A DNA stretch of 64,000 bases from an uncultured Candidatus Saccharibacteria bacterium (GCA_964481135.1 CAYZSW010000001.1:7963-71962), one strand, 5' to 3'; positions 45,370 through 62,571 are shown, counted from the stretch's first letter. Notes: generated from the letters alone by a model not told the origin. Numbers and translations are program-made.

Positions 45370-45795
45370 TTATCTAGTTACTGAAATTGTAACGCCTAAT
45401 TCTGCTCCGGGAGCGTTTACAGTAAGACGACCATTACCGTCTTGACAGACAGTATAGTCGGTTCCACTTGGATCAGATGGCATCGAAGAAACATAAGTTG
45501 GCACTGTGGCATTTGACATATTTGCTGCGGCAGTTGTTGCAGGACAAGTAGCTATAGCATTGCCCGCATTGTCAGTTGGCAAGTTACCATTATTGTCAAC
45601 AGCATTTTGATGAATAGCATTTAAAATAGTATTTGTGTCATTGCTGCGTTGAGAATTTCTTGATTGAGCAAATTGTCTTGCTGGATTAACTGCAATTAAA
45701 ACTATTACAGCTAATATTGCAATAATTCCAATTACAACTAAAAGTTCGATTAGTGTGAACCCTTTTGTTTGAACAAAAGACAGATTTTTTTTCAT
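45370..45795 (-). CDS. pilA: type IV pilin (candidate major pilin)
   Basis: MKKNLSFVQTKG / FTLIELLVVIGIIAILA class III signal with Glu at +5, and a C-terminal Cys pair. Start taken at the second Met, after GGAGGGAAA. Confidence 0.75.
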   Translation of the reverse strand: MKKNLSFVQTKGFTLIELLVVIGIIAILAVIVLIAVNPARQFAQSRNSQRSNDTNTILNAIHQNAVDNNGNLPTDNAGNAIATCPATTAAANMSNATVPTYVSSMPSDPSGTDYTVCQDGNGRLTVNAPGAELGVTISVTR

Positions 45796-45849
45796 TTTCC
45801 CTCCTAAATACGCAAATCGTATAACACGAAAATGCATAAATTATTTTTA

Positions 45850-46059
45850 CTATTGTTTATCTAATTTTAATTTTACTTCATCTAATCCTTTTATGTCAAT
45901 GAAAGAATCTGAGCCGATGTTTTCTGGCGCTTTATTATATTTACTAACAAACATACTTAAAGAATATAAAAAATACATAAAAATAAAAAGTCCCGATAAT
46001 ATTGTTATTACCAAAATTAATTTTACCTTTCGCTGATCTTTATCTGAATTATCAATCAA
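45850..46059 (-). CDS. hypothetical small single-TM protein in the pilus cluster
   Basis: 69 aa, overlaps pilO by 8 nt. Confidence 0.4.
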   Translation of the reverse strand: MIDNSDKDQRKVKLILVITILSGLFIFMYFLYSLSMFVSKYNKAPENIGSDSFIDIKGLDEVKLKLDKQ

Positions 46060-46582
46060 AATATACCTCCGTTAAAATCTCCGCTTTGACATTATCTTTT
46101 ATATTACCCGAATCGCTAATTTTTATTGCCTTTATCGTAACTAGAATATTTCTGTGATTAGATAAATTATTAATGAAACTCATAACATTTTCGGTATAAC
46201 CAGAAACAGTAAACCTAGCAGTAATTTTGTGACCTGAAATCTCGGATTCAAATTTTGTTGATAAATCAACTTTGTTATCTTTCGCCATAGCTTCGATTCT
46301 TGAAATAATATTTATTGCTTCATCCTGATTTGGCAATAATTGATTAATATATTCCACATCGTTAGATATTTCTTGATAATCTTTTTGAAGTTTGTCTAAG
46401 TTTGCTATTCTGTCCCTAAGGGCAATTTCTTGTTTTTGTTTTTCTTTATAATTTTCTATCTGCTGATTAACCATTAAATTTCCTTGCATAAGAAGAAGGG
46501 TTGTAATTAATATAAAGAACACTAACAATAAAATTGATTGGCTGAATTTGATTGAAATTTTTTTGAATTTGTATTTTGGCAT
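46052..46582 (-). CDS. pilO: PilO-like pilus assembly protein
   Basis: N-terminal TM helix, coiled coil and a ferredoxin-like C-terminal region; sits after the PilM/N gene. Confidence 0.5.
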   Translation of the reverse strand: MPKYKFKKISIKFSQSILLLVFFILITTLLLMQGNLMVNQQIENYKEKQKQEIALRDRIANLDKLQKDYQEISNDVEYINQLLPNQDEAINIISRIEAMAKDNKVDLSTKFESEISGHKITARFTVSGYTENVMSFINNLSNHRNILVTIKAIKISDSGNIKDNVKAEILTEVYFD

Positions 46583-46609: not shown

Positions 46610-48001
46610 CTATTTTAATGTTGTGGATAACTCAAAATCTACATCCTCATTTTTTTCTAAAGCAGTGATGGGTAAATTAATTTGGTTCATGAAATTTAAT
46701 TTGTTTAAATTATCTTTGAAAATAATTAGATCATTTCTACTTTTAGCGACACCTTTAATTTTTACATTTTTGTTACTTTCAATATTTATTTCTTTTAATG
46801 AAATATTTGAATCTGCGGAATCCATAATTTCTTCAATAAAATTTGGGTTGAGTGAATTTTCTAAAGGAATTGATTTGATTGTTGCAATTTTTGAATTAAA
46901 TTTTTTTATTTGCGCCTCAAGCTCTTCTTGTTTTGAACTGGTCTCAATATTTTGCAATTGAGCATATTCTTTACTTAAATTTAAATTATCGTAATAAATT
47001 TTTCCCCAGATAAACACATACGACAAAGCCAAAAAAATTACAAACAATATAAAATAATTTACAATACTAGAAAGTTTATAATTAATATTTTCATTTTTTG
47101 CATTTTCGCGAACTTCTGTTGGAGATAAACTAAGGTCTTCTAGCGAGAGGTTGAGTCCTAGATTGTCTATATAAGAAATATATTCCTGTTTAATATTTCT
47201 AATAATTTTAATATCGCTAGAATCACCTATCTTAATATTTTTTCCAATAGTGCTAATAATTTTTTGTTCAATATCAGAAAGATTTGGCGGACCAAAAATT
47301 AAAATTTGTGCAATATCTTCATTAAGATATTTTTTATTGTAATAATTAACTGTTTCTCCTATTATTCTCTCTAATCCTTTATAATTTGAGTCAATATAGC
47401 GTGATGTACTAAAATGAACATCTTTATTTTTTGCAATAACTATTGAAATATTGTTTGTTCTTGATAAATCAACTATTGCTATCAATTTATCTGAACTAGA
47501 CAGCAAACCAGCAAGTCCAGCAGAAGGGAAGGTAATAACCAAAGGTTTACATTTAGCTAAAACCAATGATTCAAAAAAACTATCTACAATCTTTTTTTCA
47601 CAAGCTGCGATAAGAACTATTAGTGCATTAGCTTTAGTGCCAATTATTTTCCAGTTGAAATATACTTCTTGAAGTTTAAAAGGAATTACTGATTCAATTT
47701 GATAAGTAATGGCAGAATCTACCTTGCTTACAGGCATCTTTGGAATCTCAATTGTTTTCAAAAAAACTTTTTCTTCTGGCAGTGCAGCAATAACTTCTGA
47801 TTGAGTGATTTTTTTAGGTTTAGCTTTTGATTTTAATTCAACAATAAGATCAGAAAAAATTTTAATTCTTTCGATTTTTCCTGCATTAACAACCCCTGCC
47901 GGTATATTGGCAGAAGCCACAGAATCAATATTTTTGCCAGTAATTTTACACAAACGAATCACATTGTTTGAATATGTTAGTGTAAAAAAATTGCGTTTCA
48001 T
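46610..48001 (-). CDS. pilM: PilM (actin-like ATPase) fused to a PilN-like TM and coiled-coil region
   Basis: Actin/HSP70-fold N-terminal 330 aa, then a TM helix (IVNYFILFVIFLALSYVFI) and a coiled coil. Confidence 0.6.
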   Translation of the reverse strand: MKRNFFTLTYSNNVIRLCKITGKNIDSVASANIPAGVVNAGKIERIKIFSDLIVELKSKAKPKKITQSEVIAALPEEKVFLKTIEIPKMPVSKVDSAITYQIESVIPFKLQEVYFNWKIIGTKANALIVLIAACEKKIVDSFFESLVLAKCKPLVITFPSAGLAGLLSSSDKLIAIVDLSRTNNISIVIAKNKDVHFSTSRYIDSNYKGLERIIGETVNYYNKKYLNEDIAQILIFGPPNLSDIEQKIISTIGKNIKIGDSSDIKIIRNIKQEYISYIDNLGLNLSLEDLSLSPTEVRENAKNENINYKLSSIVNYFILFVIFLALSYVFIWGKIYYDNLNLSKEYAQLQNIETSSKQEELEAQIKKFNSKIATIKSIPLENSLNPNFIEEIMDSADSNISLKEINIESNKNVKIKGVAKSRNDLIIFKDNLNKLNFMNQINLPITALEKNEDVDFELSTTLK

Positions 48002-48134
48002 TGTCGGATGCCCCTCCCTGCACAGAACTACACAAATATGAACACGGATTATACACTAAAATTGATAGTTTCATCACAAGAGCAACTAATCAGTGTATTA
48101 TTTTGTGTTCCCGCCTGTGTGAATTTTGTGTGTT

Positions 48135-48596
48135 CTAATATATTTCTTCGATATTATTAATAATCAGAATTCCGCTTGCATTAAAAGTAGCTAAAGCTTC
48201 AACTTTACAGATGTATCTATTGTTATTAACACGGCTTACAATGTTTATGTTTTTTGGGTTATCCCCAGTTATATCTATTATAACACTTCCGTCATCAAAA
48301 ATTAAGTTTGTGCCAGCAAAAGATGGATCCCGCATAATTCTCAAAATGGATTCATCTATTGCTGATATTGCATTGTTGTAGGCCTCGTCAGATTTTTTTA
48401 AATTAAAACTCATATCAGTATCAATTAAAACATTTTGTAAAACAACAGTTACTGCCAACAAAGCAACGGCTAAAATTACCATAACAGCTACCATGGCAGA
48501 ACCCTTTTCACATACAGAACCACACAAAAATGAACACATATTTACACTCTTCTTATGTAACTTTAATTTATTTATTGATGGTAATTGATGTGTCAT
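48135..48596 (-). CDS. hypothetical membrane protein, possible minor pilin (PilX-like), start uncertain
   Basis: N-terminal hydrophobic helix but no canonical GFTLIE. An alternative start ~48494 (MVAVMVIL) follows an AAAAGGG RBS. The annotated start sits inside a CA-rich repeat. Confidence 0.35.
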   Translation of the reverse strand: MTHQLPSINKLKLHKKSVNMCSFLCGSVCEKGSAMVAVMVILAVALLAVTVVLQNVLIDTDMSFNLKKSDEAYNNAISAIDESILRIMRDPSFAGTNLIFDDGSVIIDITGDNPKNINIVSRVNNNRYICKVEALATFNASGILIINNIEEIY

Positions 48597-48624
48597 TTTG
48601 TGTTCCTATTTGTGTTGATTTGTG

Positions 48625-49119
48625 TTACTTAAGGTAGTATGTTGTTTCAAATTCCTGCGAAATATCACGCTTACCCTCAACCTCTCCAATAAAATTAATA
48701 TTTATTTTAATTTGTATACTAGGCCTGCCTCCGACATTGGCAATTTTACGAAATTCTAAACTTTCTACTTTAACTTGGTTTGAGGTAACATTATCAAAAT
48801 CACCGCTTTCTGATCGAATTAATGTACCCGATATCAAACCATAACTCACATCTCCAGCTATTAAATTATTTGTTGGGTTGTTATCGTTTGGCACATCGAC
48901 ACTACTTGCATTTTGCAAATCACGAATAATTAACTCTGTGACAAACCTACCATTTTTTTGAATTTCAAGTCGTGCAGTTTCTTCTTGAGAAAAATAACTG
49001 GCAGTAATTAATAAGTTTGTAATTATTAAAAGAATTATCGATAAAAGCCCCATATATATAATGGTTTCTATGAGGGTGAAACCACCTTCAAATTTTTTTC
49101 CACTTTTATATTTTTTCAT
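48625..49119 (-). CDS. pilin-like protein with prepilin-type N-terminal cleavage/methylation domain
   Basis: KFEGG / FTLIETIIYMGLLSIILLI. Confidence 0.65.
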   Translation of the reverse strand: MKKYKSGKKFEGGFTLIETIIYMGLLSIILLIITNLLITASYFSQEETARLEIQKNGRFVTELIIRDLQNASSVDVPNDNNPTNNLIAGDVSYGLISGTLIRSESGDFDNVTSNQVKVESLEFRKIANVGGRPSIQIKININFIGEVEGKRDISQEFETTYYLK

Positions 49120-49326
49120 AATTAAATAAAATTTCTAATTTTTCTAATTGATCTAATTATTCTAAACAAATACCAAACTATAATTTCTAATGTCTAAATG
49201 TATTTTCTCTTTTTTGTTATTGGTGTTTGGGTCATTTTTTAGGTTAATTACCTGCCCGCCATTAGCTATCGCTTCAAGCGATTAGCAGGCGGGGAAATTA
49301 GGTTAATTAGGTTAATTTCTACTCGC
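49120..49326. repeat. repeated leader element, copy B
   Basis: GAAATTAGGTTAATTAGGTTAATTTC, a CCTGCCCGCC...GGCGGG hairpin and TTAGAATAATTAGATCAATTAG, ending in CAATTAGAAAAATTAGAAATTT before an ATG. Confidence 0.5.
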
Positions 49327-51251
49327 TATGGTGAATAATTCACCGACACATCGTAAACAACCGGTGTTTTGCTATTCTCAAGTGTTGTTAAATATATTTT
49401 ATATTTTATATATCTTCCTAAAGAATGTGAAAGAGGAATTGCTTCTCCATCTGGATTGGTAAATCGCGTTGCTTCTGTTCCGTCTGGTCCTACAAAATTC
49501 CATGTTGCATTATCAGTATTAGTAGCAATTTGGAATTCTACATTTGTTACTCCGGGATCGATCAATTCTGTCCAAAAAATCCGATTAAATGAAACTTCAT
49601 CACCTGCATCAAAAGTACTTGATATATATTGCCCAGACGGAAAGTAACCAGTTTCTGCGATAGCTGAAAGTCGAAACATTGTATCTTGATTATTAAATAC
49701 ATTCCAATTTGTACCGGCATTATTGCTTTCTGTATATCTTGCATCTAAACCCAGATAATTAATATCATTGTCTGGGCTTCGGTCTAAATTTTCTGCGTGT
49801 TCTATGTGATATGATCGATTATGTGCAGTTCCAGGTGATTTTAGATAAAATCTATATTGCCTTCCTTCTATAAAAGCAATTTTTGGGTCAAGTGAAATTT
49901 CATGTAGTTGATAATCCATAGTAATATCTGTTCTTGTAACAAAAATTTCGTTAAATAAAATAGTATTGGTTGTCATATCTTCAATAACTAAATATAAATC
50001 ATCTTGAGGCTGAGCACCAACACTTTTTTTAACATAAATTGCCATTCTATTAAAAAACTCTGTACCCTCTTTGTAAGTAAAAATTTCTCCTTTATAAAAA
50101 TTTCCGTAAACATCTTTGTCTCGTGCTTCATGATATGGATTTCCTTCGGCTTCTGGGTTGCTATCAGTAAATAATAAAATATAAACAGGCGTATTATTAA
50201 CATCTGACCAGTTTGCGCCACCATTACTAGTCCAGCGGATCATAAGATTTAAATCATCTGCACTAGTTAAAGGCACAACCAAGTTTAAAGGATTTAAAGT
50301 TCTAAATATAATTGATCTTCCGGCATTTATTTGACCTGAATTATGCTCTATTACTAGGTGATAAATATTACCAGCTGTAATAGAAACATTTTCATTTAAA
50401 TTAAGTTCATGCCAGCCAGTGTTATTAGTTTGAAAATCTTTATAACCCTCATTATTACCTCCCAACCAATTACCACTTGGACTACCGTTATTATCTGATT
50501 GCAGTCCATATCTATATGTAGGAGTTTGATTTTGATGAGTAGAAGAAATGTAAATTCTAAGCGCTCTTACCTCTTTTGTATTTTGAGCAGTAAAACGAAA
50601 AGAAACTTTTTTACTTGAATTATCTAATGCATCTGTTTGGCTAGTACCAAAAACAGAGAATCTGTTACCAACTTGCTTGCCTTCACCTTGTCCATAAGCA
50701 AGCTTAATTTCACCACCTTGATCGTTTGTAACTTCTGTATCATTTACAGTCCCATCTATAAAATCATTATAAGTTGTTTCAATCCAATTAGCATTGTTTT
50801 GATAACGAGTCAGATATATTTCCTTAGATATAGATAAATTACGGGGTTTTTGCCAAGAAACAGAAATAATAAATTTTTTTGTCGATGGGTCCTCAATTCC
50901 ACTTTCTGATATTTCTCCGCTAACCGCATTACGGTAAACTGATTCGATAGAGATGCTTCTAGTAAAATTATCATCGATATTTTCTACACCATCTGCTAAA
51001 TTCCACACTCCGTTATTATTTATAATACGAGCGGGATATGTATGATAAACTAAGTCATTCCACGACCGCTCGTGTATTGAATAAAGAGCATTAACTGCTT
51101 CTTGAACATATTCTTCTGCTTGAGTTTGTTTTAATGAATTAAACTGAGCTTGTGAAATATCTACAAAAAGACCAATAACTGAACTAATTATTACACTAGC
51201 AATAGCAGTAGCAATAATAAGCTCAATTAGAATTTGACCTTTATTTGACAC
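49326..51251 (-). CDS. large (~640 aa) pilin-like protein, candidate tip or PilY1/PilV-like adhesin subunit
   Basis: The ORF-track N-terminal extension translates a CA-rich leader. A GTG ~51251 gives MSNKG / QILIELIIATAIASVII, a classic short prepilin leader, followed by 600 aa of beta-rich sequence. Confidence 0.5.
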   Translation of the reverse strand: MSNKGQILIELIIATAIASVIISSVIGLFVDISQAQFNSLKQTQAEEYVQEAVNALYSIHERSWNDLVYHTYPARIINNNGVWNLADGVENIDDNFTRSISIESVYRNAVSGEISESGIEDPSTKKFIISVSWQKPRNLSISKEIYLTRYQNNANWIETTYNDFIDGTVNDTEVTNDQGGEIKLAYGQGEGKQVGNRFSVFGTSQTDALDNSSKKVSFRFTAQNTKEVRALRIYISSTHQNQTPTYRYGLQSDNNGSPSGNWLGGNNEGYKDFQTNNTGWHELNLNENVSITAGNIYHLVIEHNSGQINAGRSIIFRTLNPLNLVVPLTSADDLNLMIRWTSNGGANWSDVNNTPVYILLFTDSNPEAEGNPYHEARDKDVYGNFYKGEIFTYKEGTEFFNRMAIYVKKSVGAQPQDDLYLVIEDMTTNTILFNEIFVTRTDITMDYQLHEISLDPKIAFIEGRQYRFYLKSPGTAHNRSYHIEHAENLDRSPDNDINYLGLDARYTESNNAGTNWNVFNNQDTMFRLSAIAETGYFPSGQYISSTFDAGDEVSFNRIFWTELIDPGVTNVEFQIATNTDNATWNFVGPDGTEATRFTNPDGEAIPLSHSLGRYIKYKIYLTTLENSKTPVVYDVSVNYSP

Positions 51252-51333
51252 AGAATTACACAAATTGGAACACAAATTACCACACCTATTAAGTTGATGT
51301 GTATTTCTGTGTTCTGTTTTGTGTTTTTCTGTG

Positions 51334-51858
51334 TTAATTAACATCAATTACTCCCAACTTATTAATTGTAAAATTTCTAGTTTCGCCGGAGCTTAACTCA
51401 GATAATGAAAAATTTTTATTTTGCTCATCGTAATTCCTTACATTACCAAAAACTTTCTCAAAGACAATTGTCGAATTATCTGGTAAATTTGAATCTAATG
51501 ATAAATTGTCTGGTAAATTTACATTGATATTATAATTATCACTCGGGTTATAAATAATTCCCCGATATAAAACAATTTTATTTTCAACTGAATCAAAATA
51601 TATGCTAAAATTTTCGCCCGACTCAGCTGTATCGCAATTTTGGGTACACATTCTACTCATTGCCTGATTCTGTGCCTGATATATAGTAGATAATATTTGA
51701 GTCGAAAAAGAATCCAAACTGTTGGTTCGTTGAAAATTTAAATAAGAAACCCACGATCCAGCTAAAATAATACCAAAAATTCCTATCGTCACTAATAGTT
51801 CAATTAAAGTAAAACCTTTTTTAACTTGTAGCTGGTAGCTTTTTAGCTTATTAGACAA
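51334..51858 (-). CDS. pilin-like protein (prepilin-type N-terminal domain)
   Basis: TTG start after GGAGGGGC. KKG / FTLIELLVTIGIFGIILA. Confidence 0.65.
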   Translation of the reverse strand: MSNKLKSYQLQVKKGFTLIELLVTIGIFGIILAGSWVSYLNFQRTNSLDSFSTQILSTIYQAQNQAMSRMCTQNCDTAESGENFSIYFDSVENKIVLYRGIIYNPSDNYNINVNLPDNLSLDSNLPDNSTIVFEKVFGNVRNYDEQNKNFSLSELSSGETRNFTINKLGVIDVN

Positions 51859-51948
51859 TGCCCCTCCGTTTACTAGCTTATTAGTTTGTAGCCTTTTAAC
51901 TTATTAGAGAAAAATATCTAAGAAGCTAATTAGCTAATTCCTAAGAAG

Positions 51949-52407
51949 CTATTTTAAATGCTCTTTAATCTTTTCTACAACTTGATTTGGTGTAAGGTTT
52001 GCTTTTACTAAATAATCATTTGCGCCAAGTTTTTTTGCTCTATCAATATCAGTTTGCTGGCCAAGATTAGAAAATACTACTACTGGTTTTTTGGCGTTCG
52101 GCCAACTACTGGCACGAAGTTTTTCTAATATTTCAAATCCATCTACTTTTGGAAGCATCAGGTCTAAAAGTATAATACTATAATCATTTTTCTCTAATTT
52201 TTCTAAAGCTTGTTGTCCATCAAGAGCATTATCAACTTCAAAACCTTCCATTGAACATTTTGTTGAATACATTTTTACTAGTAATTCATCGTCTTCTATA
52301 ATTAATAATTTACCACCATTTTTTTCCAATTGTGCTGATTGATTAGCTGTATTGTCTGCTGGCTGTGGTTGACCCTGAGGTTGAACTGGTATTTGTTGAT
52401 TTTGCAT
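51949..52407 (-). CDS. single-domain response regulator (CheY-like receiver only) with a Q/P-rich N-terminal tail
   Basis: REC-domain motifs (LLIIEDD, DLMLP, receiver lysine region). Start chosen at MQNQQ after GAAAGGAG. Confidence 0.7.
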   Translation of the reverse strand: MQNQQIPVQPQGQPQPADNTANQSAQLEKNGGKLLIIEDDELLVKMYSTKCSMEGFEVDNALDGQQALEKLEKNDYSIILLDLMLPKVDGFEILEKLRASSWPNAKKPVVVFSNLGQQTDIDRAKKLGANDYLVKANLTPNQVVEKIKEHLK

Positions 52408-52456
52408 AATTATACTCCTTTCTTTCACACAGAACTACACAAATAGGAATACAAAT

Positions 52457-52882
52457 TTACACTTTAGTTAAAAACGGTTTTCTATCATTGGTGTAAATGA
52501 TTCTTTTGACATATAGTTTTAGTGTAGAAAAATTTACTAAATAACCTATTTCATATTTACTATTTCTTAAATAATGATAAAGTTGTATTTCGTCTTGTTT
52601 AGTAGTGAATCTTGACGATTTCAATTCTATAATAATTTTATTATCGATAATTACATCTGGTTTATAACTTCCTACTTTTTTACCAGTCTGATTAGAATAA
52701 ATACTAATTAATTTTTCTTTTTCAATTTTTATTTGTTTATTTGTTAAATATTCAATCAATAAATTCTGATAAATTGATTCTTTGTGACCAGGTCCGTATT
52801 CCTTTCTTATTTCGAAAAAACATCCTTGAACAATATAGCTTAATTCCTTGTAAAGGAACAGCTTCTTATCTGGTGCGTTCAT
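52457..52882 (-). CDS. GxxExxY family protein
   Basis: [29 protein letters not shown]. Start MNAPDKK follows AGGAACACAA. Flanked by ~20-bp imperfect inverted repeats at 52425-52465 and 52870-52920. Confidence 0.7.
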
Positions 52883-53023
52883 TTGTGTTCCTGTTTGTGT
52901 TGTTTTGTGTTGTAACCAACGGTAATGTAAAGCTAAAATTGGAGCCATGCCCTTCGCGACTCTCTACCCATATTTTACCACCACATCCTTCAACTATCAA
53001 TCGGGAAATGTAAAGGCCTAAAC

Positions 53024-55201
53024 CTAATCCTGACCCTGACCTTCGATAACTTTTTTAGTTCCACCAGATACTTGATAATACTTAGTAAATAATGCCTCTT
53101 GTTTTTCTTCGGAAATACCTTGTCCAGAATCAGAAATAGAAAACTGGGCGAATTTATCTTTTAATTGTATATCAAATTTAACCCAACCACTTTTAGTATA
53201 TTTTATAGCGTTATCTATTAGATTAGTAAGAACTTGCTGAATTTTATCAGAATCAGTATAAACAAAAAGTTGCTCAGGAATTTCCTCAAGCTTAAATTCA
53301 AGACCTTTTTTCTCGGCTATTGGAGATATCTGTTTAATTAAAGTTTTTACAATGGGAATAATATCTATATTTTTTGGCTGAATAGTAATTTTCCCTTTTT
53401 CTATACGAGATGAAGTTAAAAAATCATTAACCATGCGAATTAATCTTTCGGAAGCAGATTGAGTTTCTTTAAGTGGTTCGCGTAAAGTTTCTGGAATTTG
53501 CCCAAAGTCACCATTTAAAATCATATCATTATATCCCTTAATGGCTGTCATTGGAGTTCTTAGATCGTGTGCGGCAATATTTAAAAATTCATCTTTCATT
53601 TTTGCAAGTTCTCTTTCTTTTGAAACATCATGAAACACTACCACGCAACCTATAATTTTATTGTTATTATCTCGTAGAGGAGAAGCACTATCTGCAACTG
53701 GAATTTTTTTATTATATTTTGTAAGTAGGTAAGTATGATTTGTCATATAGGTAATCGTGCCACTAGTCATAGCGTCTCGGACAAATTTATCATTTATTGA
53801 ATTGTCTTTTTCTAAATAAAATTTAAGTATATCTTTGTATACTTTGCCAACTGCTTCTTCTTTAGTATATCCAGAAATTTTTTCTGCAATAGAGTTAAAC
53901 ATAATTATCTTTTCATCTAGTCCAATTACAAATACAGCATCTCCAATAGAAGAAAGTATTGCTTGAATTTTATTTCGTTCGTGTTCAGTTTTTAGTTTTT
54001 CCTCATTTACATCTTCTAAAATATTTAAAATTGCCTTTTGTTGATTTTGCATTTTTTGATCGTTTAGTTTAATCTCTTTTGTTTGCTCTTCTACTTTTTT
54101 ATCAATTTCGGCACGAGATACTTTAATAGCACTAGTTAAATTATCAATTTCTCTTGATAGGTCTCCGATTTCATCTTTAGAATTATTACCAACCTTGTAA
54201 TCCAAATCTCCTTTTTGAATAATTTTTATGCCTTTATGCAAATTTTCAATTGGTTTAGAAAGAATGCGAGCAACAAATAGAGCTACCGCAAAAGAAAATA
54301 ATAAATAAACTAAACTAATAACTATCAAAATATTTATTTCATGATTAATTGGCGCAAAAACTTCCTTTTGATCAATCTTAACAACTAGTCCCCAGCCGGT
54401 GTGGTCAATATAACGAGACGCAGAAAAAACTTTTTCGTTACGATAATCAGCTAAATCTGTAAAGTAATCTTCGTTATTTAAAAGTGCCTGAACAAGTGGT
54501 ATGTGTGTATCTAATTTAGTTACTTTTACACCGGGTGGATAAGGATGTCTGGTTTCTAAAAAATACTCAACATCATTGTTTTCATCTAACCTAGCAATTA
54601 TTGTTTCTCCTGTTTCACCCAACCCAGAGTAATCATTCATAATATTAATTATTTCTTCTGGACTTGTTTGAACAATAGACACACCTAACACATTTTCATC
54701 TTTTTGTATTGGGCCGGCAAGATAAAACCAATTTTCTTTATTTTCTTCGTCTTTTACAAATGTAATATAATTTTTTTCCTTGCCAAATTCAAAATATTCT
54801 TCGCTAGAAAAATTTTTGTTTTCTTGATCTTTTTCACTTGAAGCAATAACTTTACCATCTTTATCTGTTATCCAAAGAGCGTTATAATCTGTACTTGATT
54901 TTTTAGCATCTTCTAATCGTCGCGAGAGGTCATCTTTGTCTATTGAATCAGGATTGTTATAATAATCCTGCATTAAATCAATAACCCCCACTCTTGAAGT
55001 AAAAATTTTAATTCGTTCTAAATTAATATTAATAAGATTTTCAACTCTTGATTCTTGTAAATCTGCTATTACATTTAATTTTTCCTCGGTATTATCTAAA
55101 GCATTTTTTCGCATCTCAAAATAACCATAAAAAATGGATATCAAAAAAGAGAAAAATGCTATACAAACTATGCTAATAATAATTCTTGTTCTGATTTTCA
55201 T
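53024..55201 (-). CDS. sensor histidine kinase (TM, extracytoplasmic domain, HAMP, PAS, HisKA, HATPase_c); 3' end frameshifted in an A6 run
   Basis: [14 protein letters not shown]-box and [10 protein letters not shown]1 box. The ORF stops at GQGQD, but the G2 box [41 protein letters not shown] continues in another frame down to ~52876. Confidence 0.75.
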
Positions 55202-55252
55202 AATAATTATATTGGTAACGCGTAATGGGTAATAAGTAACGCGTAATTAATA

Positions 55253-55789
55253 TTATCTAATATTTTTTCTTGCCGCATACATTCTTTCAGCTAAACCACC
55301 ATTTTGTAAAAAATCTTTTTCTAAACTCTGAAGCTGGCGATCTAATAGATAGTTAGCTTGGTGAATTAAACAAATTATTGAATTTGCTGCAGATTCTGGA
55401 TCTGACATATAGGTCATATAAGTCTCATAAGACCTATTCGACCTATAAGATAATTTTCTAATTTCCTGAATTCGTGAATCTTCTTTGTTCCAAAGTTTTA
55501 ATTTTTTCTGACGCAAAAAATCCAAATAATCTTCTAAAAGTTCTTCTAAACTTGCCCTAGCCACACCAATAAGTTTTATTTCAGATTTTTTTGATGTACC
55601 TGAAACTTGACTTCCTTCAACAATATTTTGCTTTCCACTTCTTGCGGCTTGGACCATTTGATCACGCGTCCTAGAAAATTTACTAACATATTTATTACAA
55701 AATTGGTCTGTCAAATCGTAAACTATAACCGAATTTTGATAGGATTTTAACTTTTTGTATCCTCCATGAATAGATATAAAATTTGACAT
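55253..55789 (-). CDS. four-helix-bundle protein (TIGR02436 / 23S rRNA intervening-sequence protein family)
   Basis: KSYQNSVIVYDL...GKQNIVEGS pattern; 178 aa. Confidence 0.65.
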   Translation of the reverse strand: MSNFISIHGGYKKLKSYQNSVIVYDLTDQFCNKYVSKFSRTRDQMVQAARSGKQNIVEGSQVSGTSKKSEIKLIGVARASLEELLEDYLDFLRQKKLKLWNKEDSRIQEIRKLSYRSNRSYETYMTYMSDPESAANSIICLIHQANYLLDRQLQSLEKDFLQNGGLAERMYAARKNIR

Positions 55790-55887
55790 TTAATTTTTCC
55801 TTAAATTTTATTTATTCTACTATCTTACCTACTTGCCTACAGGTCTTACTATTTATCTACCATCCTACTGGCCTACTTTCTACTAGC

Positions 55888-56208
55888 CTACTTGTCTAAT
55901 TTCTCCACTAACTTCATAATTTCTTCTTGGTGTTTTTTTACTACTTCCTGATTTCTAAATTTTTTGGCAAACTGGGCTAATTCTCTTAGGGAATTTATGA
56001 TTGATTCTTTGGTTGGATTTTCAAAATCCCCTCCGGAATCAACGAATGCTTTTTTAACAATTTCTACACAGTATTCTTTTTCCATAGATTCCTGATTAGA
56101 AACTCCTGCATCGCTACAATGTGCCTGGCTAAAACATTCGCTTATTGCATCGCGCACCATAAGTGGTGTAATTTTTTCATTTAAATCAACTCCGTAAATT
56201 TTTGTCAT
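55888..56208 (-). CDS. hypothetical protein
   Basis: 106-aa acidic ORF. Leader has (A)GTAGG repeats. Confidence 0.4.
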   Translation of the reverse strand: MTKIYGVDLNEKITPLMVRDAISECFSQAHCSDAGVSNQESMEKEYCVEIVKKAFVDSGGDFENPTKESIINSLRELAQFAKKFRNQEVVKKHQEEIMKLVEKLDK

Positions 56209-56259
56209 AATTTTCCTTTCTAATGGCCTACTAGCCTATCTTTCTACTAATCCAAAGGC

Positions 56260-56472
56260 CTAGCGTTTATCTAAATTAATTATTCTTAAAATTTCCTCGC
56301 AAATTTTCATATGTTCAATTTCTTCGTCACGGATTTTTTCCACAACTTCTCTTTTTTGAGGATCTTTTAAAGTAAGCAAATAATTAGAATACAAATCCTT
56401 TGCTTGTTTTTCTATAAAATACAAATCATAAAACATTTCCCTTAATGTATCGTGACTATTTTCCTTGTTCAT
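56260..56472 (-). CDS. hypothetical small protein
   Basis: 70 aa. DEEIEHM is faintly ferritin-like. Overlaps the upstream gene by 17 nt. Confidence 0.3.
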   Translation of the reverse strand: MNKENSHDTLREMFYDLYFIEKQAKDLYSNYLLTLKDPQKREVVEKIRDEEIEHMKICEEILRIINLDKR

Positions 56473-57631
56473 ATTTTATAAGCTCCTTAAATTTATTTTC
56501 ATGATCTATACTCTCCTCGACTAAGTGATTTAATCTGTTAATTATTTGCTGTTTTTTTTCATTATCTAAATCAGAATGCTCTACTTTTAGTAAATAATAT
56601 GATTTTAATTTTTGAATTACACTTTCTTCGACATCTATTGCTATTTGAAATTTTTCTTCCCAGGTTTCTGAATCTTCTGTTTTATATTCTTTATTTTTTC
56701 TTAATTTGCTAATTTGTTCTTTCAGTTCAATCATTCTGATTTCTCTGCCGACTAACACTTCATTAATTTTTTCTAATTCCTTAGTTCTTTGGGCAACTTT
56801 TCCTTCAATATTTGTTTTTTCTTCTTTAAGCTTGTTAGTCATTTGATTGATATTTTCACTAAGTAATCCTATTTCATCTCGTGATTTAATTTCTAATTTT
56901 TTATCTAAATCTCCATCAATAATCTTTTGTGAAATATCCTGAATCTGTCTAACTGGGTTTAAAATTGATCTAATAAAGATAAAATAAATTATTATTAGAA
57001 AAATAATAAAAATTATTATAAAAACAATATACAAATAAATTTGATAGTTGATTGATTTTTTTAAATTTTCATTTGATTGACTTAATTTTTTGGTGGATAA
57101 ATCTATAGCTTCATCGTATGCCGTATTGCGTTTAGTTAAATATTGATCTAGACCAGATTTATAAATTTCTTTTTGTTTCCAATACTCACTGCTTTCCAAT
57201 ATTTTTTGCGCCTCATCTTTATTGCCTTCATCAACTAATTTTATTGCCTCTTCTTCCATTGCAACAAGTGCAAGATTGGCTTCATCTACATTGGAAAATG
57301 CTTGTTTATCTTCATCGTCTCCTTTTTCTATAGCTTGATTTATTCTTAGCTCGAGTTTAGGCACAAATTCTTCATATCTAGTTTTCCACTTTTTATCTCC
57401 TGTAAAAGCATAATTTCTAGCCGATTGGGTTAATACTTCATCGTCATAGCGAATAAGCTCAGCTATACCATCAAGATATGAAGTTTCATTTAAATCATTA
57501 ACTAATTCGGTAAAATCAGTTTCTAAATAATTAATATTTTTACTTTCTTCAGAAATAATAAAATACCCGACTGAAATTGTCAGCATCATTAACGCAATCA
57601 AGATTAATAATATTTTTGTTCTGATTTTCAC
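56456..57631 (-). CDS. HAMP-domain membrane protein (MCP-like sensor module with no output domain)
   Basis: TM, 170-aa periplasmic domain, TM, HAMP (DEIGLLSENINQMTNKLK), coiled coil ending LVGREIRMIELKEQISKL. N-terminus MKIRTKI is paralogous to the kinase MKIRTRI. Confidence 0.6.
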   Translation of the reverse strand: MKIRTKILLILIALMMLTISVGYFIISEESKNINYLETDFTELVNDLNETSYLDGIAELIRYDDEVLTQSARNYAFTGDKKWKTRYEEFVPKLELRINQAIEKGDDEDKQAFSNVDEANLALVAMEEEAIKLVDEGNKDEAQKILESSEYWKQKEIYKSGLDQYLTKRNTAYDEAIDLSTKKLSQSNENLKKSINYQIYLYIVFIIIFIIFLIIIYFIFIRSILNPVRQIQDISQKIIDGDLDKKLEIKSRDEIGLLSENINQMTNKLKEEKTNIEGKVAQRTKELEKINEVLVGREIRMIELKEQISKLRKNKEYKTEDSETWEEKFQIAIDVEESVIQKLKSYYLLKVEHSDLDNEKKQQIINRLNHLVEESIDHENKFKELIKYEQGK

Positions 57632-57694
57632 ATTTGCTCCGCAAAACTTATAACTAATATTTCATAACTCATAACCATATCTAATAACTTAAAA

Positions 57695-58084
57695 CTATTT
57701 TTTGCCTTTTAAAGTCAATAAACTAGAAGCAAGCATTTTGGTTATTTGTTGACATTCGTCTAATAACGGTTCTGCCTCTTTTTTCTGAATTAATTTTGAA
57801 TCTTTCAATAAACTTAGCCAATACAATGTTTCATTGGCAGATTTTAAAGAAATATCATAATATTTAATAAATTCTTTTTTTGAACTAGATGATTTTGCTT
57901 CTACAATATTTGCTCCAATAGATGTTGATGATCTTAAAAGTTGATCTGAAACTATCCAATACATTTTTTTATTAGGCAAGCTATTTATAAACTTGATAAT
58001 GGATAATGAAAAATTATACGCTCTAATTTTTACATTAGAAGATTTAACATTTGAGTTATGATTATGAGTTATGAGTTTTAACAT
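57695..58084 (-). CDS. four-helix-bundle protein (TIGR02436 family)
   Basis: YNFSLSIIKFINSL...RSSTSIGANIVEAKS. Its ATG lies 3 nt after the PAS gene stop. ATAACTCAT-type inverted repeats occur at both ends. Confidence 0.65.
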   Translation of the reverse strand: MLKLITHNHNSNVKSSNVKIRAYNFSLSIIKFINSLPNKKMYWIVSDQLLRSSTSIGANIVEAKSSSSKKEFIKYYDISLKSANETLYWLSLLKDSKLIQKKEAEPLLDECQQITKMLASSLLTLKGKK

Positions 58085-58089
58085 ATGAA

Positions 58090-59337
58090 TTATTTTCCTT
58101 TCAACCTTTCAATCTCTTTTTTAAGCTCTATCATTTTAAGTTCGCGACCCACCATAAGATTATTCATTTTTTCTGTAAATTGCGTTTGTTTTTTTAATTT
58201 TTCTTGCGCTTCCATTTCTTTTGAAATATCAAAAATAAATCCTTCTAGGTGTTTAATATTTCCCTTATTATCTTTTATTGCAAGTCCCTTTTCATGAACC
58301 CAAATATTTTTTTCATCTTTACTTATGATACGATAATCAATTTCCCAGTATCTATTTTCTTTTACTGCCTTGGAAATTCCTTCTGATACTAGACTTCTAT
58401 CTTGTTTGTAAATTACACTTTCATAAGTTCTAATTTTATTTTCTACAAAATCACTTGCCTTATATCCACACAACTGCTCAATATAATTACTTACAAACAT
58501 CATGGTCCAATTTTTATCAAACTTACATTTGTAAATAATTCCCGGGATATTATTAACTAAATTTGAAAATTCTTTTTGAAACTGCTCAAGCTTAATTTTA
58601 TTTAGCTTATTTTCATTAATATCTCTATCTATTCCTCTATATCCGGTGGATCCATCTTGTTTTTTTACTGGTAGACCATAACTTAAAATCCAAAATATTT
58701 TTCCATTTTTATCTAAAAGACGATTTTCTAAATTGATTGTCTTTTTACCTTCTTTAATAAAAGCTAAGCCAATTTTTTTAATTTCTTCTTTGTCTGGAGA
58801 CAAATCATAAAAATGTTTTTTGCCAATGACCTCTTCTGGCTTATATCCCAAAACTTGTTCTATAGAAGGACTTACATATGTATACAAACCATTTTCATCA
58901 ACTTCCCAAATAAAAGATTTGCTTTCACTAACTAAACTTTCGTATGCCTTATTTAATTCAAGAATTTTTTGTTCGTTTTTAATTCTATTGGTAATATCGT
59001 GAGCTAAACTTAAAATTGCTTTTTTGCCATGAAAGTCAATAACTTGGGAATTAATTTCTACTGGAATTTCCCTGCCATTACTTGTAACATGAGCCGAACG
59101 AAATACTAACTTTCCTTTGGATTTTAACTCCTGGATTCTTTGGGGCACCATTTTAGCATATTTAGGTGAATCAATTTTCTGTGGGCCAATTTCTAATAAC
59201 TGTTCTTTGGTGTATCCTAACCGACTGCAAGCTTCTTTATTGACATCTAAAAAATTACCCTCTAAGTCGTGGATAAATACAGCTTCATTTAAATTTTCGA
59301 ATATTATTTGATATTTATCATCCATTTTTGCTTTCAT
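58090..59337 (-). CDS. multi-PAS sensor protein lacking a kinase domain
   Basis: Three PAS/PAC-like repeats, then a coiled coil ending MVGRELKMIELKKEIERLKGK. Confidence 0.6.
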   Translation of the reverse strand: MKAKMDDKYQIIFENLNEAVFIHDLEGNFLDVNKEACSRLGYTKEQLLEIGPQKIDSPKYAKMVPQRIQELKSKGKLVFRSAHVTSNGREIPVEINSQVIDFHGKKAILSLAHDITNRIKNEQKILELNKAYESLVSESKSFIWEVDENGLYTYVSPSIEQVLGYKPEEVIGKKHFYDLSPDKEEIKKIGLAFIKEGKKTINLENRLLDKNGKIFWILSYGLPVKKQDGSTGYRGIDRDINENKLNKIKLEQFQKEFSNLVNNIPGIIYKCKFDKNWTMMFVSNYIEQLCGYKASDFVENKIRTYESVIYKQDRSLVSEGISKAVKENRYWEIDYRIISKDEKNIWVHEKGLAIKDNKGNIKHLEGFIFDISKEMEAQEKLKKQTQFTEKMNNLMVGRELKMIELKKEIERLKGK

Positions 59338-59366
59338 TTTTGAAAAAAATTTTAATTTTCTTAATG

Positions 59367-60596
59367 TTATCTGTTGGAAAAATTACCAACTAAACCATAT
59401 ATCGGGCTAATAATTGTTAAAACTAAAGCAGCTACAATTATTCCCACTATTAACATTAATACTGGTTCAATAAGATCAGACAGTGTTTTCAGCATAATAT
59501 CAACCTGCTCGTCATAATACTCCCCTAGTTCACTCAAAACCTCATCCATCTTGCCTGATTTCTCACCAACTTTAGTAATTTTAATCAACATATTTGGAAT
59601 TACTTTTGAATGAGACGCAAAAGATTGAGACAATGATTTACCACCCCTGACTAATTTTTCTGAATCAATAATTGCATTTTTTAAATTTATATCAAAAATA
59701 CCTTCTGAAACGATTTTCAAAGAATCTGTCATTGGAACACCTGCATGTAATAAAAGTGATAAAGTAGAAGTTATTCTAGACATATCGTATGCCTGAGTAA
59801 GTTTTGAAACATAAGGAATCTTTCTTAAAAAAAAGGAATTGGTATTTTTTCCTGCAGAAGAACGAAAAAAAACAATAACAAAAATAATAATTATAAAAAG
59901 AATTGGAAAACTTAAATACCAAAAATTTATAAAAATCGTTGTTAGAAACTGTAGAATTTTTAAAGTAAAAGGTAAATCTATTTGCATTCTGGCAAAAACT
60001 TCTAATATTTTTGGCACAACTAAAATTAACATTACAAAACCCATAATAGCTAAAGCAACAAGCACAACAATTGGATAAGTAAAAGCAGAAACTACTTTTG
60101 TTTTCATACGAACAGTTTTTGAAAGTTGTTTATAAATACTAGCCAAAACTTCTGAAATTTTTCCACTAACTTCTCCTGCCGAAACCAAAGAAATAAAGGT
60201 TTTGTCAAAAATTTCAGGATATTTTGCTAATGCTTGGGAAAGTGGACGGCCACTTTCAATATCATATTTTATTTCAATTAGAATTTTATTAAATTTTTTT
60301 GATTTTGTATCTTGAGATATCACTTCAATAGAATCGGCAATTGGCATACCAGATTTAAGCATTGTAGAAAGATTTCTAGCAAATGTTGCCTTGTCATTAA
60401 TACTTACTCCGCCAGAAAACATCTCGGCAATCGAAAATTTGGAAAATGCAGAATCTTCTTTTTTTTGAATTGTAATTATCGTATATTTTTGAAGTTTTAA
60501 AAAACTAGCGATTTCATCTTCGCTTGAAGCGACTTTTTCGCCTTTGATTATTTCATTATTTGAACCCATTGCTTCATAATAAAAATTCATTATCAA
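59367..60596 (-). CDS. pilC: type IV pilus assembly platform protein PilC (GspF family)
   Basis: Two T2SSF repeats and 3 TM segments; 409 aa. Confidence 0.85.
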   Translation of the reverse strand: MIMNFYYEAMGSNNEIIKGEKVASSEDEIASFLKLQKYTIITIQKKEDSAFSKFSIAEMFSGGVSINDKATFARNLSTMLKSGMPIADSIEVISQDTKSKKFNKILIEIKYDIESGRPLSQALAKYPEIFDKTFISLVSAGEVSGKISEVLASIYKQLSKTVRMKTKVVSAFTYPIVVLVALAIMGFVMLILVVPKILEVFARMQIDLPFTLKILQFLTTIFINFWYLSFPILFIIIIFVIVFFRSSAGKNTNSFFLRKIPYVSKLTQAYDMSRITSTLSLLLHAGVPMTDSLKIVSEGIFDINLKNAIIDSEKLVRGGKSLSQSFASHSKVIPNMLIKITKVGEKSGKMDEVLSELGEYYDEQVDIMLKTLSDLIEPVLMLIVGIIVAALVLTIISPIYGLVGNFSNR

Positions 60597-60688
60597 CCGT
60601 TCTAAATGTTGAATATGTTCTATCTCTTTATTTGTTCAAATTGCTACAATTACAACACTTTGAACAATTAGAACATTTTGAACATTTT

Positions 60689-62377
60689 TTAAGCTTTTGT
60701 TACCCTCAGAACTTCTTCAATTGTTGTTACTCCTTCTCTAACTTTTTTAATCCCATCTTGATGAATAAAAACCATACCTTCTTTTTGTGCTTGTTTTTTA
60801 ACTTCTTCTATTGTTGGGTTTTTATTAATGATTTCTGAAATAGTTGGAGTAACATCTAAAATTTCATAAATTCCAATCCTACCTTTATACCCTGAATTAT
60901 TACATTGTTTACAACCTTTGCCTCGATAAAATTTAATATTTTCTGTTTCTTTCATTCCCAAAGAATCTAAAATACTTTTACTCGGTTCATAGCTTTCAAT
61001 ACAATTAGCACAAATTTTTCTAACTAGTCGCTGAGCAATAATCACATTTAGTGTTGAAGCTAAAAGAAAAGGTTGTATTTTTAAATCAATAAATCTAAAA
61101 ATAGCAGAAATAGAATCATTAGTATGAAGTGTAGAAAGCATAAGGTGTCCAGTTAGAGCAGAATGAACAGCAATTTCTGCAGTTTCAGTATCTCGAATTT
61201 CACCCACCATAATTATGTCTGGGTCATGACGCAAAAAAGCTCTAAGCCCGGATGCGAAAGTAAGTTTAATCTCTGGTTTTACTTGAGTTTGCTCTATACC
61301 TTCAATGCCATATTCTATAGGATCTTCAATAGTACAAATTTTAATATTTGAGGTATTTAAAATATTTAAAATCGAATACAAAGTAGTTGTTTTACCCGAA
61401 CCTGTTGGACCTGTTACTAAAATCATTCCAAAAGGTTTAGCAATAGATTTTTTTACCAGTTCTAAATTTTTGCCATCAAGGCCTAGCTCGTTCAAAGTTA
61501 AAACTCTTTGTGATTCTTTTAAAATTCTCAACACAACATCTTCACCATAAAACGAAGGCACGATTGAAACTCTAAGAGAAACAAATTCTTTTTTTCCTTT
61601 AGAAAATTTAAAACGACCATCTTGAGGCAGACGAGTTTCATCTATTTTTAAGCGTGCCAAAATTTTTATTCTAGCCACTAGTGCATCATCGATTTCTTTT
61701 GGAAGATCAATAACATTTTGTAGTACACCATCAACTCTAAATCTAATTCTTGTTTTATCTTCCCATTTTTCAATATGTATATCTGAAGCATCTTGCGATA
61801 GCGCATGGTCTAAAATTGTATCAATAATTTTTACAACCGGTACATCTTGAGCAACTTTTTGAATACCTTGAATTTCTTCTTCAGGTACTGAAACCTTTGA
61901 TTTTTCAACATTTTCATTAATAATTTTTGCAAAATCTTTTTGAATATCTGCTTTGTATTTACCCAGTGCTTCATCTATATCTCTTGCGCTTGCTAGATAC
62001 GGTTTAACACTATACCCAGTTTTTTTTCGAATAAAGTCAATTACTTCAAAATCAGAAGGATTCTCCATTGCCAAGTGAATTAAACTATTCTCTTTATTGA
62101 ATGCTACGATTCTGTATTCTCTTGCTGTTTCTTCTGGAATAAGACTTAAAACTTGCTCTGAAATTTTTTGGGAACTTAAATCAATATAATCAACACCCAA
62201 AACTTCTGCAATAGTTTTAGTTAGATATTCTTCGGAAATTAAACCTTCTTCTACTAAAATATTGCCCAGACTTTTATCTTGGCCTTTTGTTTTTTCAAAT
62301 GCTTTTTCTAAATCTTCTAGTTTAACTAAGTTTGATTTAGCAACTATTTCTTTTAATTGATCATCAGAAATTTGCAT
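60689..62377 (-). CDS. pilB: type IV pilus assembly ATPase PilB (GspE family)
   Basis: Walker A GPTGSGKTTTL, Asp box, His box and a CxxC-type tetracysteine. Start MQISDD follows CAGGGAGGGGC. Confidence 0.9.
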   Translation of the reverse strand: MQISDDQLKEIVAKSNLVKLEDLEKAFEKTKGQDKSLGNILVEEGLISEEYLTKTIAEVLGVDYIDLSSQKISEQVLSLIPEETAREYRIVAFNKENSLIHLAMENPSDFEVIDFIRKKTGYSVKPYLASARDIDEALGKYKADIQKDFAKIINENVEKSKVSVPEEEIQGIQKVAQDVPVVKIIDTILDHALSQDASDIHIEKWEDKTRIRFRVDGVLQNVIDLPKEIDDALVARIKILARLKIDETRLPQDGRFKFSKGKKEFVSLRVSIVPSFYGEDVVLRILKESQRVLTLNELGLDGKNLELVKKSIAKPFGMILVTGPTGSGKTTTLYSILNILNTSNIKICTIEDPIEYGIEGIEQTQVKPEIKLTFASGLRAFLRHDPDIIMVGEIRDTETAEIAVHSALTGHLMLSTLHTNDSISAIFRFIDLKIQPFLLASTLNVIIAQRLVRKICANCIESYEPSKSILDSLGMKETENIKFYRGKGCKQCNNSGYKGRIGIYEILDVTPTISEIINKNPTIEEVKKQAQKEGMVFIHQDGIKKVREGVTTIEEVLRVTKA

Positions 62378-62571
62378 GCCCCTCCCTGTAAACAAATATA
62401 CACAAATCAGAATACAAACCAACACGCTGAAATTGATATTTTGATCAGTAAAATAATATTACTAGTGTGTTATTTTATTTTCGCATCTGCGTATATTTGT
62501 ATTATAGAGTCTATTTCATTATATCAAAAATTAGGATATTTAGATATTGTTAATTGTCTAATAATATTATT

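Follow-up and report, generated by a model that had tools for sequence, protein, structure and literature searches.

A putative type IV pilus operon with an embedded signalling cassette and palindrome-flanked insertions in a low-GC Patescibacteria-like bacterium

Results

Overview of the locus

We analysed a stretch of 64,000 nt (the window). Taken as a whole, its pilus region is best explained, in our judgement with slightly better than even probability, as a single type IV pilus (T4P) operon whose genes all share one orientation, from a Patescibacteria-like bacterium of low GC content and small genome; in it a signalling cassette separates pilC from the minor pilin genes. The machine is best explained as secretin-less and monoderm-style, consisting of PilB, PilC, a PilM-PilN fusion, PilO, a small TM protein, PilA and four minor pilins. 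Three ORF-bearing elements (GxxExxY, 4HB and 4HB-suffix) and at least six ORF-less hairpins seem to have colonised the cassette junctions and most of the pilus gaps, and are best placed outside the sensing chain. The original prediction gave the minus-strand gene order from pilB to pilA correctly, with every named gene present, but its coordinates (53024-62425) reach only from pilB to a truncated kinase. The locus is larger and runs from 62377 to 45370.

Pilus genes

Searches with Pfam and TIGR models confirmed pilB, pilC, PilM-PilN, PilO, PilA, the receiver and the HAMP protein. The pilus genes were as follows.

60689-62377, minus strand, pilB, extension ATPase, 562 aa (Pfam T2SSE 1.8e-133, MshEN 4.5e-19)
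59367-60590, minus strand, pilC, platform protein, 407 aa (Pfam T2SSF 3.1e-55, in two stretches)
51334-51858, minus strand, minor pilin, 174 aa, KKG/FTLIELL (N_methyl 2.3e-8)
49326-51251, minus strand, pilin-like protein, 641 aa, GTG start, MSNKG/QILIEL (weak DUF4082, ComGE-like N-terminus)
48625-49119, minus strand, minor pilin, 164 aa, GG/FTLIETI (N_methyl 3.8e-5)
48135-48596, minus strand, PilX/GspK-like minor pilin without Glu5, EKG/SAMVAV (weak GspK match, 0.0037)
46610-48001, minus strand, PilM-PilN fusion, 463 aa (PilM_2 1.8e-13, PilN 2.1e-4)
46052-46582, minus strand, PilO, 176 aa (PilO 2.7e-8)
45850-46059, minus strand, single-TM protein between pilO and pilA, 69 aa (gene call in L005; syntenic 74-aa gene in L014)
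45370-45837, minus strand, major pilin PilA, TKG/FTLIELLVV (N_methyl, T2SSG)

PilB has an MshEN N-domain, the Walker A motif GPTGSGKT and a CxxC...CxxC motif, and its exact protein sequence was found on eight contigs. The four predicted pilin-like genes were all recovered, between 51858 and 48135, while the 69-aa membrane ORF had been overlooked. The 174-aa minor pilin is 72% identical to its neighbour in the L012 locus; the PilX/GspK-like pilin and PilA are 37.5% and 55% identical, respectively, to their syntenic counterparts in L014. The start codon of the PilX/GspK-like gene is uncertain because a hairpin overlies its 5' end.

The giant pilin-like protein had been predicted at 673 aa and proposed as a tip adhesin. 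Its length here is 641 aa; the GTG start and the short MSNKG/QILIEL leader stood, in agreement with the 10-12-residue leaders of its homologues, of which 79 were found in Patescibacteria. An AF2 model (pLDDT 85.2) predicts that a pilin helix and head lead into beta-sandwich domains; Foldseek matched phage baseplate, reelin, CBM and discoidin-type sandwiches. This confident model is consistent with an adhesin, and the protein may be regarded as a candidate tip adhesin.

As predicted, pilT, pilD and pilQ are missing from the window: among its 64,000 nt we found a single T2SSE ATPase and zero A24 peptidase homologues. The three genes were also absent from the 10 kb upstream of pilB on one sister contig. 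The competence channel gene ComEC is present within the window. The gene set resembles the secretin-less T4P of monoderms and Patescibacteria (e.g. Saccharibacteria) in having PilB, PilC, PilM/N/O, a major pilin and a set of minor pilins with no secretin. It differs in that PilM and PilN are fused, one large minor pilin carries a beta-sandwich part of about 480 aa, and a multi-sensor two-component cassette lies in the operon.

The sensory and pilus genes are on the same strand and tightly spaced. No intrinsic terminator was found between genes on this strand of the region, and promoter-like sites were at the chance level (97 found vs 97 expected for sequence of 30% GC). The best of them (45899-45870, 11/12) lies directly upstream of pilA. 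These features favour a single operon, although in sequence of 30% GC it may have internal promoters.

The signalling cassette

The cassette genes, with the insertions left aside, were as follows.

58090-59337, minus strand, soluble 3xPAS protein without output domain (Pfam, TIGR00229)
56456-57631, minus strand, TM-sensor-TM-HAMP-coiled-coil protein, 391 aa (HAMP 5.4e-13)
56260-56472, minus strand, helical protein, 70 aa (TIGR04535 3.7e-7, below cutoff)
55888-56208, minus strand, four-helix protein of an unnamed family, 106 aa (conserved Cys/His C25, H30, C31 and H93 in the alignment)
52866-55201, minus strand, dCache-HAMP-PAS-HisKA-HATPase sensor kinase (Pfam; 778 aa when corrected)
51949-52407, minus strand, receiver-only response regulator, 152 aa (Response_reg 1.5e-22)

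Judged by sequence comparison, the PAS protein, TM-HAMP protein, small helical protein, dCache-HAMP-PAS kinase and receiver-only regulator(s) form a conserved Patescibacterial cassette. The 3xPAS and TM-HAMP proteins both terminate in the coiled coil LMVGRELKMIELKKEI, a conserved motif common to cassette partners in L014, L098 and L099. The TM-HAMP protein is 52% and 44% identical to cassette proteins of about 316 aa in L098 and L099. It has a C-terminal extension of about 75 aa, and its residues 271-391 resemble the C-terminal end of PAS388 from L099 (9e-19). It had been called MCP-like; the HAMP domain is there, but Pfam detected neither an MCP signalling domain nor a kinase output. The 70-aa ORF shares 17 nt with the end of the TM-HAMP gene, shows weak ferritin-like (ExxH) similarity and is 49% identical to the 66-aa gene of the L099 cassette. 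The 106-aa protein belongs to a family with 200 representative clusters at E<=1e-3; it matched no Pfam family, and a fold search with its model (pLDDT 90.6) gave no informative match.

In the regulator, Response_reg covers residues 42-154 of a 159-aa ORF and no further domain was found. The predicted Q/P-rich tail is in fact an N-terminal extension: 34 low-complexity residues (1-34) rich in Q, P and N. The regulator's best solved relatives in the PDB are CheY (6azr_B) and the stand-alone RR468 (3dge_C), and it retains the acidic pocket, phospho-Asp, Ser, Lys and a CheY-Y106-like Tyr.

A frameshift in the sensor kinase

The kinase is of the classical HisKA type. The predicted gene begins at 55201, but the ORF that ends at 53024 is interrupted by a frameshift. 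A 1-nt deletion at about 53030 (GGTCAGGGTCAG/GATTAG) cuts the frame-0 product to 725 aa, directly before the G2 box, and the -1 frame runs on to a stop ending at 52866. Homologous kinases have C-termini to which the reconstructed tail can be aligned, and over residues 1-762 the corrected protein is 39% identical to HK778 of L098; identity with HK780 of L099 is 31%. The frameshift sits in the ATP-lid G2 box, at an identical site in five assemblies (L004-L008) that came from three pipelines, and deprives the product of this box and of the ATP-binding domain's C-terminal third. With a fixed frameshift and no G2 box, signalling in this population is probably impaired; the pathway is probably kinase-dead, or at best phosphatase-only.

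The frameshift, together with the density of selfish insertions, could reflect decay of the module here. On this account, which we consider possible but doubtful, the cassette is a relic with a kinase pseudogene, relaxed selection has let selfish elements in, and the pilus is constitutive or controlled elsewhere. The identical G2-box deletion in five assemblies and the three ORF-bearing insertions at cassette junctions fit such decay, as does the close relative L012, which retains only a 243-aa kinase core and the regulator. However, the remaining cassette ORFs are all intact, the insertions are confined to junctions and disrupt no other reading frame, and the regulator shares 84-87% identity with its L012 homologue (87% over the receiver) and has all its catalytic residues. 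A truncated DHp-containing kinase could also keep phosphatase or scaffold activity. Decay would be compatible with a signalling cassette of the pilus operon as the ancestral state.

The regulator in other loci

Homologues of the regulator were found inside T4P operons in five other Patescibacterial loci, ordered as follows.

L012: pilB-pilC-HK-RR-pilin-large pilin
L014: PAS-HK-RR-RR-pilB-pilC-minor pilins-pilMN-pilO-pilA
L016 and L100/L101: pilMNO-pilB-pilin-RR-pilT-pilC-pilin-pilD
L009 (distant): HK-RR-pilB-REC protein-pilC

In two of the pilus-linked loci, L016 and L100/L101, the regulator stop overlaps the pilT start. Five loci (L013, L015, L017, L098 and L099) have the homologue away from pilus genes, and identity to the window regulator did not separate the linked copies from the unlinked ones. 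With about half of the sampled homologues (L013, L015, L017) and the L098/L099 cassettes located off pilus genes, the family is not exclusively pilus-dedicated.

Alternatively, the cassette may be an incidental neighbour, a general Patescibacterial environmental-sensing device whose receiver acts on another target or as a phosphate sink or phosphorelay intermediate. The full five-part cassettes with 2-3 receivers adjoining unrelated genes in L098 and L099, and the HK-RR pairs of L013 and L015 (regulators 46-61% identical) without pilus linkage, would agree with this. So would the varying position of the module, which precedes pilB in L014 but follows pilC in the window. Nevertheless, the linkage is repeated in at least five other loci of differing architecture, and a kinase-less regulator between a pilin gene and pilT, with overlapping frames, is hard to explain by chance. 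We regard an incidental neighbour as unlikely.

Discussion

Possible control of the pilus

We favour a signalling cassette embedded in the T4P operon, composed of two output-less sensors (3xPAS and TM-HAMP), small helical proteins, the dCache-HAMP-PAS kinase and the receiver. The input would be a classical two-component kinase and not a CheA pathway. The kinase would phosphorylate the receiver, which, having no output domain, would act by binding a pilus component; PilB, PilT, PilC or PilM may be its partner, and extension and retraction would be tuned. The original prediction had suggested such direct, non-transcriptional control of the motor. The receiver-only architecture, the co-orientation and the recurrent presence of homologues in T4P operons make it plausible, although the same family also occurs off pilus genes.

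A likeness to PilG/PilH had also been proposed, and it appears to be a loose one. In the Chp system of Pseudomonas aeruginosa (PMC10519157), single-domain CheY-like receivers steer T4P extension and retraction without DNA binding, and their genes are linked to those of the pilus. However, that system is a pathway of the chemotaxis type, with CheA (ChpA), CheW (PilI), CheR/CheB and, in PilJ, an MCP that has a signalling domain, whereas this locus has a classical HisKA/HATPase kinase and one receiver, and neither CheA, CheW nor an MCPsignal domain. The PATAN-CheY regulators PixG, PixE and PixH of Synechocystis, acting on PilB1/PilC (bioRxiv 10.1101/2021.06.11.447907; PMC11181946), offer an analogy, since they work through direct contact with the motor, as proposed here; they have a PATAN domain and CheA-like kinases, whereas the window regulator has only its low-complexity extension. 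By analogy, the action proposed here may resemble that of the stand-alone or PATAN-CheY regulators of Pseudomonas and Synechocystis. PilS-PilR of Pseudomonas, Geobacter and Myxococcus similarly places a kinase and a response regulator within the pilus cluster, between pilC and the pilin genes. However, PilR switches on transcription of pilA as a sigma-54 activator of the NtrC type and has AAA+ and HTH domains, unlike the 152-aa receiver-only protein. The locus is thus neither a Chp/PilG-PilH nor a PilS-PilR system.

Palindrome-flanked elements and hairpins

The predicted sensing set had included two 4HB genes and GxxExxY. Both were ruled out as sensory: the 4HB genes encode 23S_rRNA_IVP/TIGR02436 proteins (one with TIGR04258) and not sensory four-helix bundles, and GxxExxY is a PDDEXK_3/TIGR04256 gene between palindromes. 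They belong to the protein families of 23S rRNA intervening sequences (IVS), are mostly palindrome-flanked and look selfish. The elements and hairpins were as follows.

57645-58091, minus strand, IVS-like element, 4HB gene 57695-58084, arms 57645-57696 and 58040-58091 (Pfam 23S_rRNA_IVP 1.2e-27, TIGR02436 1e-30)
55253-55789, minus strand, 4HB protein with suffix domain (TIGR02436 and TIGR04258)
52427-52910, minus strand, IVS-like element, GxxExxY / PD-(D/E)XK gene 52457-52882 (PDDEXK_3 1e-26, TIGR04256 2.4e-27)
62392-62500, minus strand, ORF-less hairpin, pilB leader (-36.8 kcal/mol, z -5.1), then Shine-Dalgarno sequence (SD) GGGAGGGGC
60598-60687, minus strand, ORF-less hairpin, pilB/pilC gap, AATGTTC/GAACATT units (-22.3 kcal/mol, z -3.4)
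51875-51950, minus strand, hairpin, regulator/first minor pilin gap (-23.5 kcal/mol, z -2.5), then SD GGAGGGGC
51241-51341, minus strand, ORF-less ACACAAA-family hairpin, 174-aa pilin/large pilin gap (-38.6 kcal/mol, z -6.6)
48513-48626, minus strand, ORF-less ACACAAA-family hairpin, 5' end of the PilX-like gene
48021-48126, minus strand, ORF-less ACACAAA-family hairpin, PilX-like/pilMN gap, then SD GGGAGGGGC

The arms of most ORF elements are inverted repeats of 41-52 nt made of tandem units of about 10 nt. Those of the 57645-58091 element (52 nt, 71% complementary) flank an insertion at the PAS/TM-HAMP gene junction; no such element lies there in L098, where the junction is tight, or in L099, which has only the 66-aa gene. 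The GxxExxY element (arms 52427-52474 and 52863-52910, ACACAAA family, 48 nt, 75% complementary) is absent from the kinase-regulator junction of L012, L098 and L099, and its 5' arm supplies the final ~16 codons of the kinase gene. GxxExxY genes in 68 metagenomic loci generally have this IVS-like palindromic architecture. The 4HB-suffix gene has a GUAG-type tandem array upstream (55790-55890) and an internal palindrome (55408-55447); a search for a complementary 3' arm found none.

The ORF-less hairpins, which lie ahead of almost all pilus genes, might instead be a regulatory RNA device, in which RNase III processing or stability sites, or start-sequestering stems, set pilus stoichiometry and the ORF copies carry a passenger gene. 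Strong stems are predicted directly 5' of SD sequences (z -3.4 to -6.6 for four), the 51241-51341 hairpin fills its gap and has the large pilin's GTG start in its 3' arm, L012 has hairpins at the same pilB/pilC and pilin/large pilin junctions with differing arm sequences, and 23S rRNA IVS of this design are RNase III substrates (PMC4990558). We nevertheless consider such a device improbable, because two hairpins have modest z scores (-1.5 and -1.7), the syntenic L014 operon has zero hairpins, Rfam gave no match, and sense-strand G-U mismatches are not in excess over A-C (57 vs 67 in the arms of 46 elements), which gives no sign of RNA-specific selection.

As insertions, the elements resemble the 23S rRNA IVS with an S23p ORF of Coxiella and Leptospira (PMC4990558): inverted repeats at the two ends pair into a long stem, the ORF comes after short tandem repeats (GACAGAT in Coxiella; in the window, units of ACACAAA or ACGCAGA), the loop ORF is of the same four-helix-bundle family, and ORF-less hairpin versions exist. 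Unlike them, the window elements occupy intergenic junctions of coding operons and not helix 25 or 45 of 23S rRNA, many carry a PD-(D/E)XK (GxxExxY) gene, and excision by RNase III is only putative. REP/BIME sequences and REPtrons, with a RAYT transposase between inverted REPs, likewise place a small nuclease-type gene between inverted palindromic repeats, with many ORF-less copies in nearby intergenic regions of co-oriented genes. In contrast, the window elements encode a PD-(D/E)XK or four-helix-bundle protein instead of a Y1 transposase, their mobility is putative, and their arms are built from arrayed ~10-nt units in place of one REP palindrome.

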